DNA from: Shigella phage vB_SboS_Gloob
DNA: 64,000 bases
Sequence record: OL615011
Reading direction: 5' to 3' (one strand)
The notes under the pieces were generated by a model. That model saw only the letters and a list, made by a program, of their open reading frames with translations, had not been told where the DNA came from and searched no databases. This document shows positions 41,531 through 45,474 of the stretch, piece by piece; the first letter of the stretch is position 1; the number at the start of each line of letters is the position of its first letter. Both the position numbers and the translations under genes were made by a program.

Positions 41531-43413
41531 CTCAAAGAGGAGAGGACTTTTCAAATTAGCTGGGCTGCGGTAAAGTATTAAACGTGAGGCGAACAGCGCA
41601 TTGAGTTAGGCATCTAAAGCCGACCTCACTAATCCCAGTCTCAGGGGCATGCGTGAATAGAGGCGTGACATCCACCTTGCATGGTGTTAGTGGACGCACT
41701 GACCGTCGGAGAACGAAACTCCCTGTTGTAGCGTGATTAGCTCAGAAATAGAGAGCACCCCGTTGGCAAGTCGACACCAACACATAGGGGAGGTCGGGGG
41801 CGCTAATCTCCATCACGCCGACAACATTATGAGTCTTCACAGAGGGTTCATAATGTTGCGTCAAAGGGCAACACAAAGGTTCCTGTTGGTTGAATTAACT
41901 TGATTCATAGTTCCTGCTGATCTTCCCGGATTCGAAGGAGCACCAACAGGCGAGGCCGGATGCGTAAGTTCCGGCAAATCGATGGCGAGGTGGTGCATTG
42001 GTGACACGGGGTAGCGCCCAGAAGTGTGGTTCGATTCCACACCCTCGCCAACAAATTAAAGGGTTTTCAATAACGGGTTGTAGAGTATAGTTAACCCACT
42101 GAACGAAAAGCTGTTTGGGCATTAGACAAACACTTCGATGTGAACCCAGGACATGGCGTCTTGTGCTCAAACAGGTTTTCGTTCTCGTTGCTTGCGGCTT
42201 TGCGGGTTTTAAGAAACAGACCACAAAGATAAATGCAAATGATAACGCTTATCTGGCAGTAGCTTAACAGCTAAAACACCAGTGAGGTCTTCCGACTCCT
42301 CATAACGAAATTCGGCGCACTAAAATAGGCGGGAGGGTGTGATTAATAAGCTCCCGCCGACATCTGAGAGGGCACTTGATCGAGGTCGGTATCCGCTATA
42401 CGGGATGCTGTAAAATGAATCCACGGAGTGTCCTCCCAGATGTGACTCACAGCACATCAGTTTGCAGTTATGCAAGCTTCAATAAGTTAAAACACGCCTC
42501 AGGCGTTCTGGGATGAAGCCCTGAAAAGTGGAATCCCCAGGGCTGGCAATCCCTGTTAAAGAAGTAGCCGTGTGGGGGTCAGCCCCCCACAACGCAAAGT
42601 AGAGTCCTCTGGACATTGAACTTAACCCAAGGGTTGATTCACATGGTGAACGTTCCCGGCGGCGATAGTACAAGATGAGGGGTCATTGAAGTTCAGAGAA
42701 CTCTACTTTGCGGCAGGTACTGCAAAACAGTGATCATCCTGACAAGTGTGATCACTCTACGATACAAACTGAGTTCGGGCTATCAACCCATACCGTTCTG
42801 GCGGGTCACAAAATACCAGAGAACAAGTTTGCTATCGGCCAGCCTCGTTTGGTCTGAACGTTAGAGGACAAGTGCTGAAGTGTGACGAAGACACTGAAGT
42901 GCGGGTTGTTTAGTGAATCCTGCTAAGCGCAAGGGTTGAGTGGCAAGAACCACCTGAGGATAAGTCAACGCCATTATTCGCCATGATAATGGCATCGGGA
43001 GGCACCCGACACTAAACCGTTTGGCCTGGCGAAAGCAGGCAAGTATCTGGGGTCGATCACCTTATCCTCACCCAGATGCGGGTTGCAGCCTGGCTGCAAC
43101 TCTGATGGCTCTCAATATTCCATAATGTATATCGGTTGTGGATGACAGGTAAATGAGCGGAAAGGCGAGAGCCATCAGAGTTGTGACCAACCCGATCTTG
43201 CAAGCCCGTATCCCTGTATGGTCAAGACTTGCAAGTGGAAAGCCCTGGAAAAATAAACGCCTGTTGTGAGGCCACGGTGCAAGCCAATGACCAACAGAAG
43301 CGCATGCCGTGAGGCGCACAAAGAGGCCTGCATGAACTGATCATGCACAAACGGGATAAAGGGTTGACAGTCCTTGGTTGGTTGCACAATAATGTGTATT
43401 AGGAGCAACATCA
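41531..43413. other. ORF-free, hairpin-dense region; candidate structured ncRNA(s) or cis-acting DNA element
   Basis: No credible ORF on either strand; long perfect inverted repeats and reiterated GGGTTG motif (see findings). Confidence 0.5.
41949..42050 (+). other. tRNA-like element with canonical T-arm and acceptor 3' half but aberrant 5' half
   Basis: TGTGG-TTCGATT-CCACA then CCTCGCC pairing with upstream GGCGAGG; body does not fit a standard cloverleaf. Confidence 0.25.
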
Positions 43414-43635
43414 ATGAGTTATTTTGTATGTGTCTGTGATGTTGAATATTTTGATAAATTTGCTAGGGAATCTTTCTATTCTTTCTTACCGATCCAATCG
43501 TTTAAAACTGAATCGGAAGCAAATAAATCAATGGAACTAATGAGACCTCTTTACAGGAAGGAACTTGCTATTTTGCAGGATTCTGACCTAATAATCATGG
43601 GTAATAGGATCACAAGATCGGTGCCCAAGATATAA
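43414..43635 (+). CDS. hypothetical protein (73 aa) abutting tRNA-Met
   Basis: AGGAG SD; stop 6 nt before tRNA. Confidence 0.45.
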   Translation: MSYFVCVCDVEYFDKFARESFYSFLPIQSFKTESEANKSMELMRPLYRKELAILQDSDLIIMGNRITRSVPKI

Positions 43636-43641
43636 AATTTC

Positions 43642-43717
43642 GGTCCTGTAGCTCAGTGGTTAGAGCAGCCCCCTCATAAGGGGTTGGTCACTGGTTCAAG
43701 TCCAGTCTGGATCACCA
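43642..43717 (+). tRNA. tRNA-Met (anticodon CAT)
   Basis: Cloverleaf by eye: D-arm GCTC-AGTGGTTA-GAGC, anticodon loop CTCATAA, T-arm ACTGG-TTCAAGT-CCAGT, 3' CCA encoded. Confidence 0.8.
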
Positions 43718-44126
43718 TATTAAGGGGCGATAGTTTAAGGGATAGCTGTCCGGACAGCGAATCCTCATAGAGAACGGCTGGGCGGCCAAACCCAGCAGGT
43801 GAGGTGAAAAGCCTCAGACCCCGCCAAATTTGTGTTGAAGAGACGTTGGGTCAGAACCAACTCGCCCGAAAGGGGGATCGTATAGCGGTAATTATGCTTC
43901 GACACAACAGCATTATGGGGAGCACCGATGAGATGAGGGTTCGGGCGAGTTAAGCGACGGCCGATTAAGTCCTGTACTCTGTTCAAGGTGGTCTTAACCT
44001 CCCCACCAAATATTGTTGGACTGCCAGCAAGCTCCGGTCTACGGCAGGCGTGATGGGATCGCGGAATTCAAATACCGCCTTGGGAGCACCTAAATAAACC
44101 AGTTGTTCAATAAACAGTTGGTGAGT

Positions 44127-44327
44127 ATGATGAAAACGTTCGGTGATTTTATTGCTGAGTGGGATGGCCTCGCTACCGACAACAAAGAGATTGTCGAGTT
44201 TGTTGAAAAGCGAGGTGACAAGTGGGTTGTCCTTGACCACACCAAGACGAAGGTTCTTGGTACACATGACACCAAAGCTGACGCTGATGCCCAATTAAGG
44301 GCGATTGAAGCGAACAAGCACGGATAA
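44127..44327 (+). CDS. hypothetical protein (about 66 aa) abutting tRNA-Asn
   Basis: ORF track (track start is TTG at 44103; ATG at 44127). Confidence 0.4.
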   Translation: MMKTFGDFIAEWDGLATDNKEIVEFVEKRGDKWVVLDHTKTKVLGTHDTKADADAQLRAIEANKHG

Positions 44328-44328
44328 A

Positions 44329-44404
44329 GACGATGTAGTTCAGTCGGTAGAACGGTGGACTGTTAATCCATATGTCACAGGTTCAAGTCCTGTCATCGTC
44401 GCCA
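44329..44404 (+). tRNA. tRNA-Asn (anticodon GTT)
   Basis: GACGATG acceptor, D-arm GTTC-AGTCGGTA-GAAC, anticodon loop CTGTTAA, T-arm ACAGG-TTCAAGT-CCTGT, CCA encoded. Confidence 0.8.
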
Positions 44405-44661
44405 GACAATGGGTGTGAACGAAAGTGAATAGGCACGAAGTACGCGACCGACAAGCTCCAAGCCTCTGTCCAATAGCCGAACGGAATCTGAAGACGACGA
44501 TAGTAACGCCCACCAAATTCAGAGTGTAGAGGCTACAGTAGTGCGCACCTCACGGGTTGCTACACCGGACACTCTGATACAAATCTGCCGCTGCGTGGAT
44601 TAGCTGAGGAAGGATGGCCGATGTCCTCGAGCGTGGCCCAGCACGCAGCGGTAGACCAAAT

Positions 44662-44745
44662 GTGAGTGTGGCAGAGCGGTCGAATGCAGGAGACTGTAAA
44701 TCTCCCCGTAACAGCGCGGTGGTTCGAATCCATCCACTCACACCA
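44662..44745 (+). tRNA. tRNA-Tyr (anticodon GTA), long variable arm
   Basis: Acceptor GTGAGTG/CACTCAC, anticodon stem GGAGA/TCTCC with loop CTGTAAA, T-loop TTCGAAT, CCA encoded. Confidence 0.7.
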
Positions 44746-44886
44746 AACACAGTAAGCGTTGCAGCCACGCTGTGTATCTGGCCAGAAGGCACTGGTCGCC
44801 AGTTAACCAATCGGCGCTGAGAAGCGCGGGGAGTTGGGCTACGGCAGATCAAATGCTCAATCGGGTGTGAAGCCCGTCTAAATTTC

Positions 44887-44970
44887 GCGGGAGCCATAGG
44901 GGTTGGACAGTAGCCGACTGATCATCGGCGACGATCACTGGACAGGTTCGAATCCTGATCTCCCGCTCCA
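44887..44970 (+). tRNA. probable tRNA-Ile (anticodon GAT) with atypical T-stem and long variable region
   Basis: Acceptor GCGGGAG/CTCCCGC, anticodon stem GCCGA/TCGGC with loop CTGATCA, T-loop TTCGAAT; geometry imperfect by eye. Confidence 0.4.
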
Positions 44971-44974
44971 AATT

Positions 44975-45063
44975 GGAAGGTTGCCCGAGAGGTTTAAGAG
45001 ACTCGACTGCTAATCGAGTGGGGCTTTTAGCCCCCGAAGGTTCGAATCCTTCACCTTCCGCCA
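44975..45063 (+). tRNA. tRNA-Ser (anticodon GCT), long variable arm
   Basis: Acceptor GGAAGGT/ACCTTCC, anticodon stem CTCGA/TCGAG with loop CTGCTAA, variable arm TGGGGCTTTTAGCCCCC, T-arm GAAGG-TTCGAAT-CCTTC, CCA encoded. Confidence 0.75.
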
Positions 45064-45158
45064 AATTTGCGATCATCGCGGAAATCCCAGACGCGAGTGG
45101 AGGCCAGGGTGAAGACTGGCACAGTTCATCGACGGCAAAGATGGCTGTCTCCTGGAAT

Positions 45159-45224
45159 TGGGTGGCCTGAATGGTAGGGAAAGCGAGCCAAGCGTCGTGG
45201 GTTCAATTCCCACTCACCCAGCCC
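45159..45224 (+). other. truncated tRNA-like element (about 62 nt)
   Basis: T-arm GTGGG-TTCAATT-CCCAC and acceptor TGGGTGG/TCACCCA but only about 31 nt where D and anticodon arms should be. Confidence 0.25.
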
Positions 45225-45474
45225 CAGATGGAATGGGTCCATCATCGCAAATCATATTTTGGGCGTGACTTCCTGAAGAGTTAGAAGATGTGCATGTCGA
45301 CTCTCTCGTAATCAGGTGTTTAGGAAGTTAAGAAAATCGGAGCGAGGATGGTGAAATGCAAATAGCTTTCTCTACGCTTACGACTTCGGGTTCGATTCCC
45401 GACGCGCTCTCCCATAGGGCAGTACCAGTGCAAAGTGTGTAGTCTTTTCAACCCATCCCCATCGATGTGGCATA

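Follow-up and report, generated by a model that had tools for sequence, protein, structure and literature searches.

The DNA analysed here is a window of 64,000 nucleotides (nt) from Shigella phage vB_SboS_Gloob (sequence record OL615011), and our subject is its transfer RNA (tRNA) region at 41540-45500, in which four canonical tRNA genes are interspersed with five additional elements that carry parts of a tRNA, here called E1 to E5, and with a module resembling transfer-messenger RNA (tmRNA), here called the tag RNA. [quoted passage not shown] The phage is an Agtrevirus and ViI-like (Ackermannviridae), and shares ~96% identity with Shigella phage Ag3; a stretch of 4.3 kb that includes the array is 95-96% identical to Shigella phages Ag3 and ChubbyThor (genus Agtrevirus) and is matched by 314 phage records in total. 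The number of tRNAs in the region varies from 1 to 8 among relatives. The authors of the CBA120 genome flagged this region as unexplained in 2011, a 2024 review of the family mentions neither tRNAs nor non-coding RNA, and in all records inspected the block of several kb is blank or filled with spurious small ORFs. The canonical tRNAs and the additional elements, E2 being split into two parts, are as follows.

43642-43717, plus strand: canonical tRNA-Met(CAU) (ARAGORN, Rfam)
44329-44404, plus strand: canonical tRNA-Asn(GUU) (ARAGORN, Rfam)
44662-44745, plus strand: canonical tRNA-Tyr(GUA) (ARAGORN, Rfam)
44975-45063, plus strand: canonical tRNA-Ser(GCU) (ARAGORN, Rfam)
41724-41826, plus strand: E1, a cloverleaf on an extended closing helix (minimum-energy fold, covariation)
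41954-41975, plus strand: E2a, the hairpin GGCCGGA-UGCGUAAG-UUCCGGC (alignment of relatives)
41984-42050, plus strand: E2b, a 67-nt tRNA-like RNA without anticodon loop (covariation, relaxed ARAGORN, Rfam tRNA-Sec at 19.4 bits)
45158-45226, plus strand: E3, a short tRNA-like RNA of ~66 nt (T arm and acceptor pairing, 28 records)
45261-45414, plus strand: E4-long, a 150-nt four-arm RNA (acceptor covariation, RNAalifold, minimum-energy fold)
44887-44970, plus strand: E5, a near-canonical tRNA with a long variable arm (ARAGORN at 95%, Rfam tRNA-Sec at 21.4 bits)

Architecture and conservation of the tRNA-like elements

Eight copies of the T-loop motif GGTTCRANTCC lie within 41540-45500, four in the canonical tRNAs and four in extra elements. 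The latter, at 42028, 44945, 45200 and 45389, each form a T arm of 5-6 bp that directly precedes a strand pairing with an upstream 7-mer. On the plus strand of the window, eight of the ten matches to the shorter motif TTCRANTCC and all six matches to GGTTCRAWTCC fall in 41500-45550. A closing helix of 7 bp is present in all five elements, and a UUCRANY T arm in E2b, E3, E4 and E5. An anticodon arm (5-bp stem, 7-nt loop, U33) and an N73-CCA in register are found only in E5; E1 to E4 are without such an arm. A first-pass annotation of this DNA had claimed a T arm and acceptor pairing for E1 to E4, and motif positions and pairing bear this out for E2, E3 and E4. At E1, the supposed T arm turned out to be a variable hairpin with the loop CGCUAA and no T-loop. 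The boundaries given there are right for E3, while E1 extends further outward, E2 is composite, the 5' strand of E4 was misplaced and E5 had gone unlisted.

At default thresholds, ARAGORN and Rfam report only the four tRNAs in the window and call none of the five extra elements, whose best Rfam scores are at most 21 bits compared to gathering scores of 29-47. In the Rfam E-value scan, E2b and E5 reach 19-21 bits against tRNA-Sec, and E1 and E4 are without any match. A relaxed ARAGORN search, which had been proposed as a check on the elements, recovers them in part: at the 95% threshold it calls only E5 among the extras (44887-44970, tRNA-Ile(GAU)), and at 85% it adds 41984-42050 as tRNA-??? 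and 45340-45412 as tRNA-Glu. ARAGORN at 85% is unreliable, as it also builds a plainly false tmRNA from real tRNAs. Homologues of the elements in other records are annotated inconsistently, namely as tRNA-Ala, tRNA-Leu, tRNA-Ile or "Undet". For the comparisons below, loci were numbered L001-L099 (first batch) and L100-L140 (second batch), and conservation figures for segments refer to the window and eleven relatives.

E2b has a 7-bp acceptor (GGCGAGG/CCUCGCC), a D arm with GG, a 6-bp T arm (GUGUGG-UUCGAUU-CCACAC) and discriminator A; the start at 41949 assigned to E2 in the first-pass annotation is that of a second, upstream copy of GGCGAGG. At the position of the anticodon arm lies a stub hairpin of 3-5 bp, GGG-GUAGCG-CCC, the loop of which is not conserved and reads UAGCG, UAGA or AAA depending on the phage. 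Among homologues, 98% of the cells are paired, and pairs of the acceptor and the T stem change on both sides. Diverged versions in Klebsiella phage RCIP0012 and Salmonella phage CRW-SP2 have compensatory changes in the acceptor and the T stem together with a different stub hairpin and loop. Because these diverged versions keep the helices by compensation, and because the stub is replaced yet retained, the alignment indicates that E2b is under selection for an anticodon-less tRNA shape. Full-length matches to E2b occur in 162 phage records, mostly with 95-99% identity and one of them annotated as tRNA-Ala; the element is present in the window, Ag3, SW16-7, CBA120 and pSal-SNUABM-02. A covariance model of E2b, applied to the window and L001-L099, scores its own orthologues in Ackermannviridae at 92-98 bits and ordinary tRNAs weakly at 20-24 bits, and it did not find the tmRNA-like terminal domains of L001-L099 (including that of L062), L100-L140 not having been searched. 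The best-scoring member of the Rfam clan for E2b is tRNA-Sec and not tmRNA. Its shape fits the outline of an RNA consisting only of a tRNA-like domain (TLD), i.e. acceptor, D-loop region and T arm on a short closing helix. Hairpin E2a is kept in all ten aligned Ackermannviridae (the window and nine of the eleven relatives fetched), even where E2b is lacking.

The minimum-energy fold of E1 is a cloverleaf over an extra 6-bp outer helix (z = -2.66), with a closing helix of 6+7 bp, a D-like arm of 4 bp, a long arm of 4+5 bp and the variable hairpin at the T-arm position. E1 has neither a UUCRANY T-loop nor GG in the D loop and, therefore, no tRNA elbow. Among 19 distinct homologues from five genera, 13 of the 31 pairs are changed on both sides compared to 4.7 in shuffles, with none of 500 shuffles reaching that value, and 88% of the cells are paired compared to 37-54% when the partners are slid. 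The hairpin at the T position varies widely in sequence among relatives and its stem is always kept; the closing helix of Serratia phage 2050H1 differs throughout in sequence and still pairs. E1 shows 96-100% identity in Agtrevirus, Kuttervirus and part of Taipeivirus, with neighbouring segments absent or 75-85% identical. The best-conserved part is the long arm, whose apical loop is CAAGUCGACA in the window and GUCAUGAC in the Serratia phage. Both loops are palindromic, which suggests that they may serve in loop-loop dimerisation or as a protein-binding site. The palindrome GUCGAC of the apical loop (41767-41776) occurs in most genera, and its Serratia counterpart lies at ~3355-3365 of L007.

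The long arm also speaks against the idea that E1 is an intron-containing tRNA, since the proposed 26-nt "insert" is a conserved and covarying extension of this arm. The only intron solution of ARAGORN, which joins the 5' half of E1 to the 3' half of E2 as a tRNA-Ala at 41731-42049 with a 237-nt intron, was likewise rejected, since each of E1 and E2b forms a closed, covarying structure of its own. Of the other options raised in the first-pass annotation, that of armless tRNAs describes E2b and E3, in which acceptor, D arm and T arm are kept and a stub replaces the anticodon arm.

E4-long is closed by GGGCGUG (45261-45267) pairing with CGCGCUC (45403-45409), an acceptor that reads GAGUGUG/CGCACUC in Kuttervirus, GGGUGCG/CGCACUC in Taipeivirus and GGGUGAU/GUCACUC in L083, a 108-kb contig from IMG/VR. 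Within E4-long are a long arm whose loop is GAUGUGCAUGUC, a second arm that contains the invariant motif GUGAAAUGCAAAUAGC, a T arm (UCGGG-UUCGAUU-CCCGA) and the tail UCCCA. RNAalifold returns this four-arm structure for ten E4 sequences, with compensatory changes at 16 of 43 pairs, and the minimum-energy fold of the window sequence gives the same four arms. The internal motifs GUGUGCAUG and GUGAAAUGCAAAUAGC are invariant. The local acceptor beginning at 45340 in the first-pass annotation was rejected: ARAGORN reports it only at 85% and its 5' strand is unconserved in Kuttervirus and Taipeivirus, whereas 45261-45267 covaries. E4 is probably the "degenerate tRNA" of the CBA120 paper.

E3 consists of an acceptor of 7-8 bp, a 3-bp D stem with GG in the loop, the T arm GUGGG-UUCAAUU-CCCAC and the tail GCCCCA, with a weak and poorly conserved stub at the position of the anticodon arm. 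It has full-length matches in 28 records, and the copy in Escherichia phage EP75 is annotated as tRNA-Leu. In the N4-like Kosakonia phage Kc283, E3 adjoins the phage's own tRNAs, and compensatory changes affect both its T stem and pair 7:66. The functional case for E3 is weaker than that for E2b because only five variants are known and the fold of the single sequence is unexceptional (z = -0.6).

E5 has an anticodon arm with a perfect stem (GCCGA-CUGAUCA-UCGGC; GAU at 44920-44922), an 11-nt variable region, U73 and an encoded CCA, and is 97% identical to a CBA120 gene that both ARAGORN and the CBA120 record call tRNA-Ile(GAU). The first pair of its T stem is A:A in the window, A:C in other relatives and A:U only in CBA120, the homologue that passes ARAGORN at default. 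Seven variants exist, their differences mostly preserving pairing by wobble. Judged by its sequence, E5 is either an unusual working tRNA or a tRNA in early decay. E5 alone looks like a decoding tRNA, with the anticodon GAU. The predicted structures of the four others, E1, E2b, E3 and E4, are such that they cannot decode: in place of the codon-reading part they have a stub or large arms of their own.

The tag RNA and the structured segments of the array

Just downstream of E2b, which ends 13 nt before a promoter-like site, lies the tag RNA, a feature that the first-pass annotation had missed.

42064-42091, plus strand: promoter-like site TTTTCA-16-TATAGT, just upstream of the tag RNA (consensus match only)
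42103-42358, plus strand: tmRNA-like tag RNA (sub-threshold Rfam match, signature of the tag ORF, covariation of the pseudoknot)

The tag RNA comprises a 5' stem module (42103-42182), the tag ORF (42235-42267), an H-type pseudoknot (42282-42317) and a hairpin with the conserved loop GUGUGAUUAAUAA (42328-42358); relatives have TTGGCA-17-TATAGT at the position of the promoter-like site. The tag ORF follows AUAAAU and reads GCA AAU GAU AAC GCU UAU CUG GCA GUA GCU UAA, i.e. ANDNAYLAVA*. The frame has no start codon, opens with a GCA resume codon and ends in a degron-like hydrophobic C-terminus and a stop codon, which is placed in a hairpin resembling helix 5 (CUGG..UAGCU-UAAC-AGCUA..CCAG). A search with a pattern that fixed the first four codons and left the remainder free yielded 26 distinct ORFs encoding 14 peptides, all of exactly 10 codons plus stop and following the pattern AN[DE][DEN]xxL[AMI][VA]A. 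All four Ala codons are used at the last position, all three stop codons occur, and the entropy at codon positions 1/2/3 is 0.44/0.43/0.89, the third being about twice the others. The stems of the pseudoknot switch together in 92 of 94 distinct sequences (GUGAGG/CCUCAU vs GCAAGG/CCUUGU in one stem; CCGA/UCGG vs CCAA/UUGG vs CCAG/CUGG in the other). These features of frame, hairpin and pseudoknot are evidence for a real tag-coding RNA, the product of which would be used in tagging.

In the Rfam scan of the window, tmRNA_permuted matches 42136-42267 with 23 bits (gathering score 47), and the homologue in an E. coli O26 prophage (L135) scores 26 bits with tmRNA_permuted and 17 bits with beta_tmRNA. 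Across loci, the scores are 23-27 bits for tmRNA_permuted (gathering 47) and 16-24 bits for beta_tmRNA (gathering 84), with the model for two-piece beta-proteobacterial tmRNA aligning tag and pseudoknot. Hence, the module is under the Rfam gathering value throughout, and ARAGORN at default does not call it; its resume consensus and tag are reported by ARAGORN at the 85% threshold only. From the permuted tmRNA that ARAGORN builds at this threshold (41890-42358), we accept the tag and resume site and reject the 3' domain, which is hairpin E2a, the same threshold having yielded a false tmRNA. In the window, no tRNA-like domain is joined to the tag RNA or confidently identifiable; the nearest such unit is E2b, with C3-G70 and no CCA.

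The window's tag region is only 85% identical to that of Ag3, the tag of which is ANDDVVLMAA, and the flanks are 96-100% identical; this drop in identity indicates a likely cassette exchange. In a distant BLAST search, 42193-42349 matches Felix-O1-like phages, in which the module sits inside the tRNA cluster, N4-like Gamaleyavirus phages and 45-kb siphoviruses, without being annotated in any record inspected. The module also occurs in T1-like and lambdoid phages; scanning IMG/VR with a pattern gave at least 120 loci, and 149 of 5426 complete E. coli genomes contain it. In E. coli O26:H11 11368, a prophage carries it, with the Q antiterminator on one side and the holin gene on the other.

Searching broadly for 5'/3' acceptor pairing in the surroundings of the tag RNA gave too much noise to be of use, and a targeted motif search took its place. 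A unit with G3-U70, sought from -900 to +1200 nt of the tag at all loci, was found only in Felix-O1-like phages, where the distance from the AUAAAU before the resume codon to the G3-U70/A73/CCA unit is 161 nt. Lambdoid and T1-like lineages have, 250-500 nt downstream, a T-arm-like hairpin with GCCACAA and (N)CCA behind it, and the 5' partner of this unit (UUGUGGC, UUGUGGU or UGGUGGU) varies in step with it. L062 and L065 have a true UUCGAUU loop; here ARAGORN reports a one-piece tmRNA at 95%, and Rfam RF00023 aligns the TLD-only unit with 20 bits. The only analogue of the T-arm and GCCACAA unit in the window is GGGGG-UCAG-CCCCC-CACAACG at 42574-42594, a weak match. Vi01 and cp16 (L004 ~1600-1690, L010) carry at the position of E2b, 5' of the tag promoter, an unrelated T-arm/acceptor unit, ..GUCGG-UUCGAAU-CCGAC-CACCGCAA. 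T-arm/acceptor units are located downstream of the tag in lineages of the Kuttervirus, Taipeivirus, Felix-type, N4-like and lambdoid kinds; a canonical T arm is present between -450 and +750 nt of the tag in 71 of 108 distinct contexts. In most other lineages, the tRNA-like domain is either degenerate or sits elsewhere.

Further observations concern the surroundings of the tag RNA. At 2666-2748 of L012 (Escherichia phage EcoM2, Felixounavirus) and at 12 similar loci lies a tRNA-like unit that ARAGORN does not call, with the acceptor CGGGGCG/CGCCUCG (G3-U70), A73, an encoded CCA, a canonical T arm, no D arm and an internal hairpin that covaries (GCGGU/ACCGC and GCUGU/ACAGC). Arrays of cassettes, each a conserved long stem with a variable insert, flank the tag RNA in L135 (4900-5380), L013, L015, L019, L022 and many IMG/VR loci; the stem is CACAAC-A-GGUAAGAGCAUU ... 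AGUGCUCUUUCC-GUUGUG, and one and the same insert, e.g. CCCUUAUGGGGCUUGGCUUAAAUGCA, is met within different stems from one phage family to another. Stems analogous to these lie at 42103-42182 and 42360-42443 of the window. The E4 motif GUGAAAUGCAAAUAGC (45351-45366) resembles the resume context of the tag RNA, AUAAAUGCAAAUGAU, and L083 has an E4-like RNA no more than ~100 nt behind the tag RNA.

Between and behind the tRNAs, the array contains three structured segments and a terminator-like hairpin.

43724-43826, plus strand: structured segment after tRNA-Met, closed by GGGG/CCCC or GGCG/CGCC and ending in ..GCCA followed by AAU
44410-44515, plus strand: conserved segment closed by UGGGUGU/ACGCCCA, then CCA, then AAU; 2 compensatory pairs, no T arm
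44520-44658, plus strand: two long hairpins, the second a 14-bp helix directly followed by CCA and AAU; 6 of 40 pairs compensatory
45474-45502, plus strand: intrinsic-terminator-like hairpin with U run that closes the array (terminator scan)

These inter-tRNA segments are conserved to the same degree as the tRNAs, and their helices end just before CCA-AAU. For the first, seven of the eleven relatives fetched, which represent four genera with Limestonevirus among them, show 88-99% conservation, and its consensus fold contains only 2 compensatory pairs; the two long hairpins are 85-100% conserved over nearly their full length in seven of the eleven, again including Limestonevirus, and two Taipeivirus phages have only a partial match. 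CCAAAT occurs six times in these 4 kb (43824, 44006, 44513, 44656, 44968 and 45061), each time just 3' of a helix or tRNA end, compared to 11 times in the remaining 60 kb, and looks like a CCA end followed by an A/U-rich site of the RNase E type. In E. coli, RNase E parts pre-tRNAs from each other by cutting A/U-rich sequence immediately 3' of the CCA, and RNase P also accepts hairpins with a 3' CCA, e.g. the 4.5S RNA precursor. Owing to the recurrent context of helix, CCA and AAU and to the single terminator-like hairpin, we favour the view that the array would be co-transcribed and its RNAs matured by the machinery for tRNAs.

The segment 43827-44008, with the second CCAAAT at its end, has no homologue in the eleven relatives fetched. 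The ORF at 43414-43635 (73 amino acids) lies inside the RNA array, and upstream of it is the best promoter match of the region (TTGACA-18-AATAAT, 43364-43393). The ORF at ~44127-44327 (~66 amino acids), also inside the array, has a homologue in Ag3 that is annotated as similar to an Aeromonas phage Aeh1 protein. In relatives L003, L008 and L011, the tRNA region contains HNH endonuclease genes or a large "receptor recognition" ORF. At 42908-43017 lies a partial match to STnc100 (38.6 bits, E = 5e-6, under the gathering score of 47); among the checked relatives, this segment is found only in Ag3, pSal-SNUABM-02 and, partly, cp16. STnc100 is a prophage-borne small RNA (sRNA) family of Salmonella and E. 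coli, and a 2026 preprint ties it to the PasD sRNAs of Stx phages. At E <= 10, the Rfam scan contained no further family apart from the tRNA/tmRNA clan and STnc100; its remaining matches (plant miRNA, snoRNA and plastid families) were at the level of chance.

Interpretation of the extra elements

Based on these data, we suggest with moderate confidence that the extra elements form a conserved array of tRNA-mimicking non-coding RNAs, expressed, processed and acting in trans, and that they are not dead tRNA genes. The mimics share a plus-strand unit with real tRNAs in Ackermannviridae, and they keep those parts of a tRNA that are read by host maturation enzymes, namely an acceptor-like helix, usually with a stacked T arm, sometimes a D arm, and often a CCA tail with an A/U stretch. 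In this model, transcription would run from a few promoters through to the terminator at ~45500. RNase P, RNase E, 3' exonucleases and the CCA-adding enzyme would then act at the tRNA-like ends to give stable small RNAs, and the mimics would finally work in trans, their targets being those proteins by which the acceptor/T-arm half of tRNA is recognised. Our most specific guess is a role in ribosome rescue, or an interference with it, for E2b at the least, because E2b adjoins the tag RNA and because relatives carry another T-arm/acceptor unit beside the tag RNA.

Several observations weigh against this model. The covariation comes from few independent lineages: that of E1 mainly from Serratia phage 2050H1 and one Taipeivirus subgroup, and that of E2b from six sequences, with E3 and E5 being too invariant for a covariation test. 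A subset of Taipeivirus is without the 5' half of E1, and E2b is precisely absent from EspM4VN, May and A221 (L002, L005 and L009), in which the tag RNA is kept. Neither E1 nor E2b encodes a CCA, and the tail CCA of E3 and E4 is displaced by 1-2 nt from the canonical N73-CCA position. Pair 3:70 of E2b is C-G or U-G and never the G3-U70 required by alanyl-tRNA synthetase (AlaRS); E2b is, therefore, no standard tRNA-like domain of a tmRNA. The T-stem mismatch of E5 and a one-base deletion in its acceptor in L119 look like early decay. Finally, predicted promoters and terminators are no commoner in the region than in shuffled sequence.

A bolder version of the model starts from the recurrent proximity of the tag RNA to some tRNA-like unit. 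For this reason, it may be that at least five unrelated enterobacterial phage groups (Ackermannviridae, Felix-O1-like phages, N4-like phages, T1-like siphoviruses and lambdoid prophages) have a split tmRNA that consists of a strongly conserved tag messenger, with a phage-specific degron of the pattern AN[DE]xxxL[AM][VA]A, and of a separate, exchangeable tRNA-like module. This module would be E2b here and an unrelated T-arm/acceptor/CCA unit next to the tag RNA in other phages, the unit of Felix-O1-like phages having G3-U70/A73/CCA. The two parts would re-program ribosome rescue during infection, jointly or via host SmpB and tmRNA, with E1, E3 and E4 as further decoys for the machinery that binds acceptors. 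We put this forward only tentatively, as an idea that stands a modest chance of being right.

Could the elements instead be tRNA pseudogenes, i.e. decaying and functionless leftovers of duplicated or acquired tRNA genes in a fast-changing cluster? The cluster does change quickly, with a tRNA content of 1 to 8 and HNH endonuclease insertions among relatives and with E2b and E3 present in some genomes and missing from others. Moreover, E5 passes ARAGORN at default in CBA120 and has a T-stem mismatch here and in most relatives as well as an acceptor deletion in one lineage, and annotators have labelled homologues tRNA-Ala, tRNA-Leu, tRNA-Ile and "Undet". However, E1, E2b and E4 keep every helix by compensation while loops and stubs vary freely, they are better conserved than their surroundings across genera, and the two non-tRNA loops of E4 are invariant even in a contig from outside the family. 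Neutral decay would not maintain an anticodon-less shape in 162 records. The first-pass annotation had listed pseudogenes among its options. This option fails for E1, E2b and E4, where compensation is accompanied by 90-100% conservation across genera between diverged or replaced flanks; it may apply to E5 and, less so, to E3. As an explanation of the array, we consider it unlikely.

Equally unlikely, in our view, is that the elements are purely cis-acting punctuation that recruits RNase P, RNase Z or RNase E to cut out tRNAs, the tag RNA and small mRNAs, the mimics themselves being by-products. In different genera, the same spot 5' of the tag-RNA promoter does hold a tRNA-like unit, E2b or an unrelated one; most units are set apart by helix-CCA-AAU junctions, and the array closes at one terminator-like hairpin. 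In the weaker form given in the first-pass annotation, processing signals that release neighbouring RNAs, the idea is plausible, in view of the ends with helix, CCA and AAU of several inter-tRNA segments and of the single terminator-like hairpin. But punctuation leaves unexplained the invariant internal loops of E4 (GUGAAAUGCAAAUAGC and GUGCAU) and the conserved palindromic apical loop of E1, and E1 is without the T-loop normally kept by substrates of RNase P and RNase Z.

Least probable is a role at the DNA level, with the elements as recombination linkers, targets of homing endonucleases or replication/packaging signals and the RNA folds as a side effect: it would account for the repeated stem-and-insert cassettes that flank the tag module in other phages with the same inserts in different stems, for neighbouring segments swapped between near-identical genomes (tag region 85% to Ag3, flanks 96-100%), for HNH genes inserted in the region in relatives and for the apical loop of E1 being a DNA palindrome, but G-U wobbles are tolerated on the plus strand only (e.g. 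9-10 of 19 sequences at T-arm pairs of E1, U3-G70 in E2b), which argues for pairing in RNA, and the canonical T-loop, the CCA tails and the translated-frame signature of the tag ORF are RNA-level features.

Relation to known RNAs and significance

In T4, species 1 and species 2 (rnaC and rnaD) are small stable RNAs in the tRNA cluster that are co-transcribed with it and matured by host tRNA enzymes via tRNA-like termini, and the M3 RNA of phi80 is processed by RNase P. T4 species 1/2 and phi80 M3 are not known to have a function, nor is T4 known to have a tmRNA-like RNA. The elements described here are alike in being candidates for stable RNAs among phage tRNA genes, a likeness of context; they differ in having canonical T arms, anticodon-less cloverleaves, a 150-nt four-arm RNA and an adjoining tmRNA-like RNA. 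In eukaryotes and organelles, mascRNA of MALAT1 and mitochondrial tRNA punctuation are tRNA-like modules for 3'-end processing. The elements resemble these in placing a non-decoding cloverleaf, as a putative site for RNase P/RNase Z, at the junction of two RNAs. By contrast, E1 and E4 have conserved internal loops beyond the needs of punctuation. With loci called tRNA pseudogene or "tRNA-Undet/OTHER", they share genomic position, partial tRNA features and inconsistent labels; they are set apart by helices kept by compensation and by the conservation of non-tRNA features too.

The segment 42229-42317 shares with tmRNA (SsrA), including its two-piece permuted form, the AUAAAU and GCA resume site, the 10-codon tag, the stop in a hairpin and the downstream pseudoknot, whereas the tag module of the window has no joined tRNA-like domain and scores below Rfam gathering and ARAGORN default. 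Known phage tmRNAs include those of mycobacteriophages, Bacillus phage G and a marine methylophage (PMC4131195, PMC11915505, PMC9004378); that of mycobacteriophage DS6A, which is TLD-only, was reported to be an inhibitor of tmRNA in E. coli (PMC4131195, PMC11915505). E2b resembles the TLD-only outline of the DS6A RNA and differs from it by C3-G70 instead of G3-U70, by the missing encoded CCA and by its absence from some relatives. Our literature searches found no description of a tmRNA-like gene in the phage groups considered here, nor of tRNA mimics, and the phage names searched in text supplements of the paper on the tmRNA database gave no match; the elements fail the standard detectors on which the pipeline of that database relies. 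We, therefore, file the tRNA mimics and the tag RNA as putative new forms of phage stable RNAs in tRNA clusters and of tmRNA.

For annotators, these loci are a warning that tRNA finders label them inconsistently (Ala, Leu, Ile, Undet). Ackermannviridae, Felix-O1-like, N4-like and T1-like phages are common in phage therapy and biocontrol, and lambdoid prophages shape the genomes of enterohaemorrhagic E. coli (EHEC); our analysis gives these genomes a non-coding gene content that can be tested. It also points to a source of natural anticodon-less tRNA scaffolds and to a natural family of degron variants. Lastly, it suggests that phages may manipulate tRNA-binding or ribosome-rescue machinery by means of RNA mimics and not of proteins.

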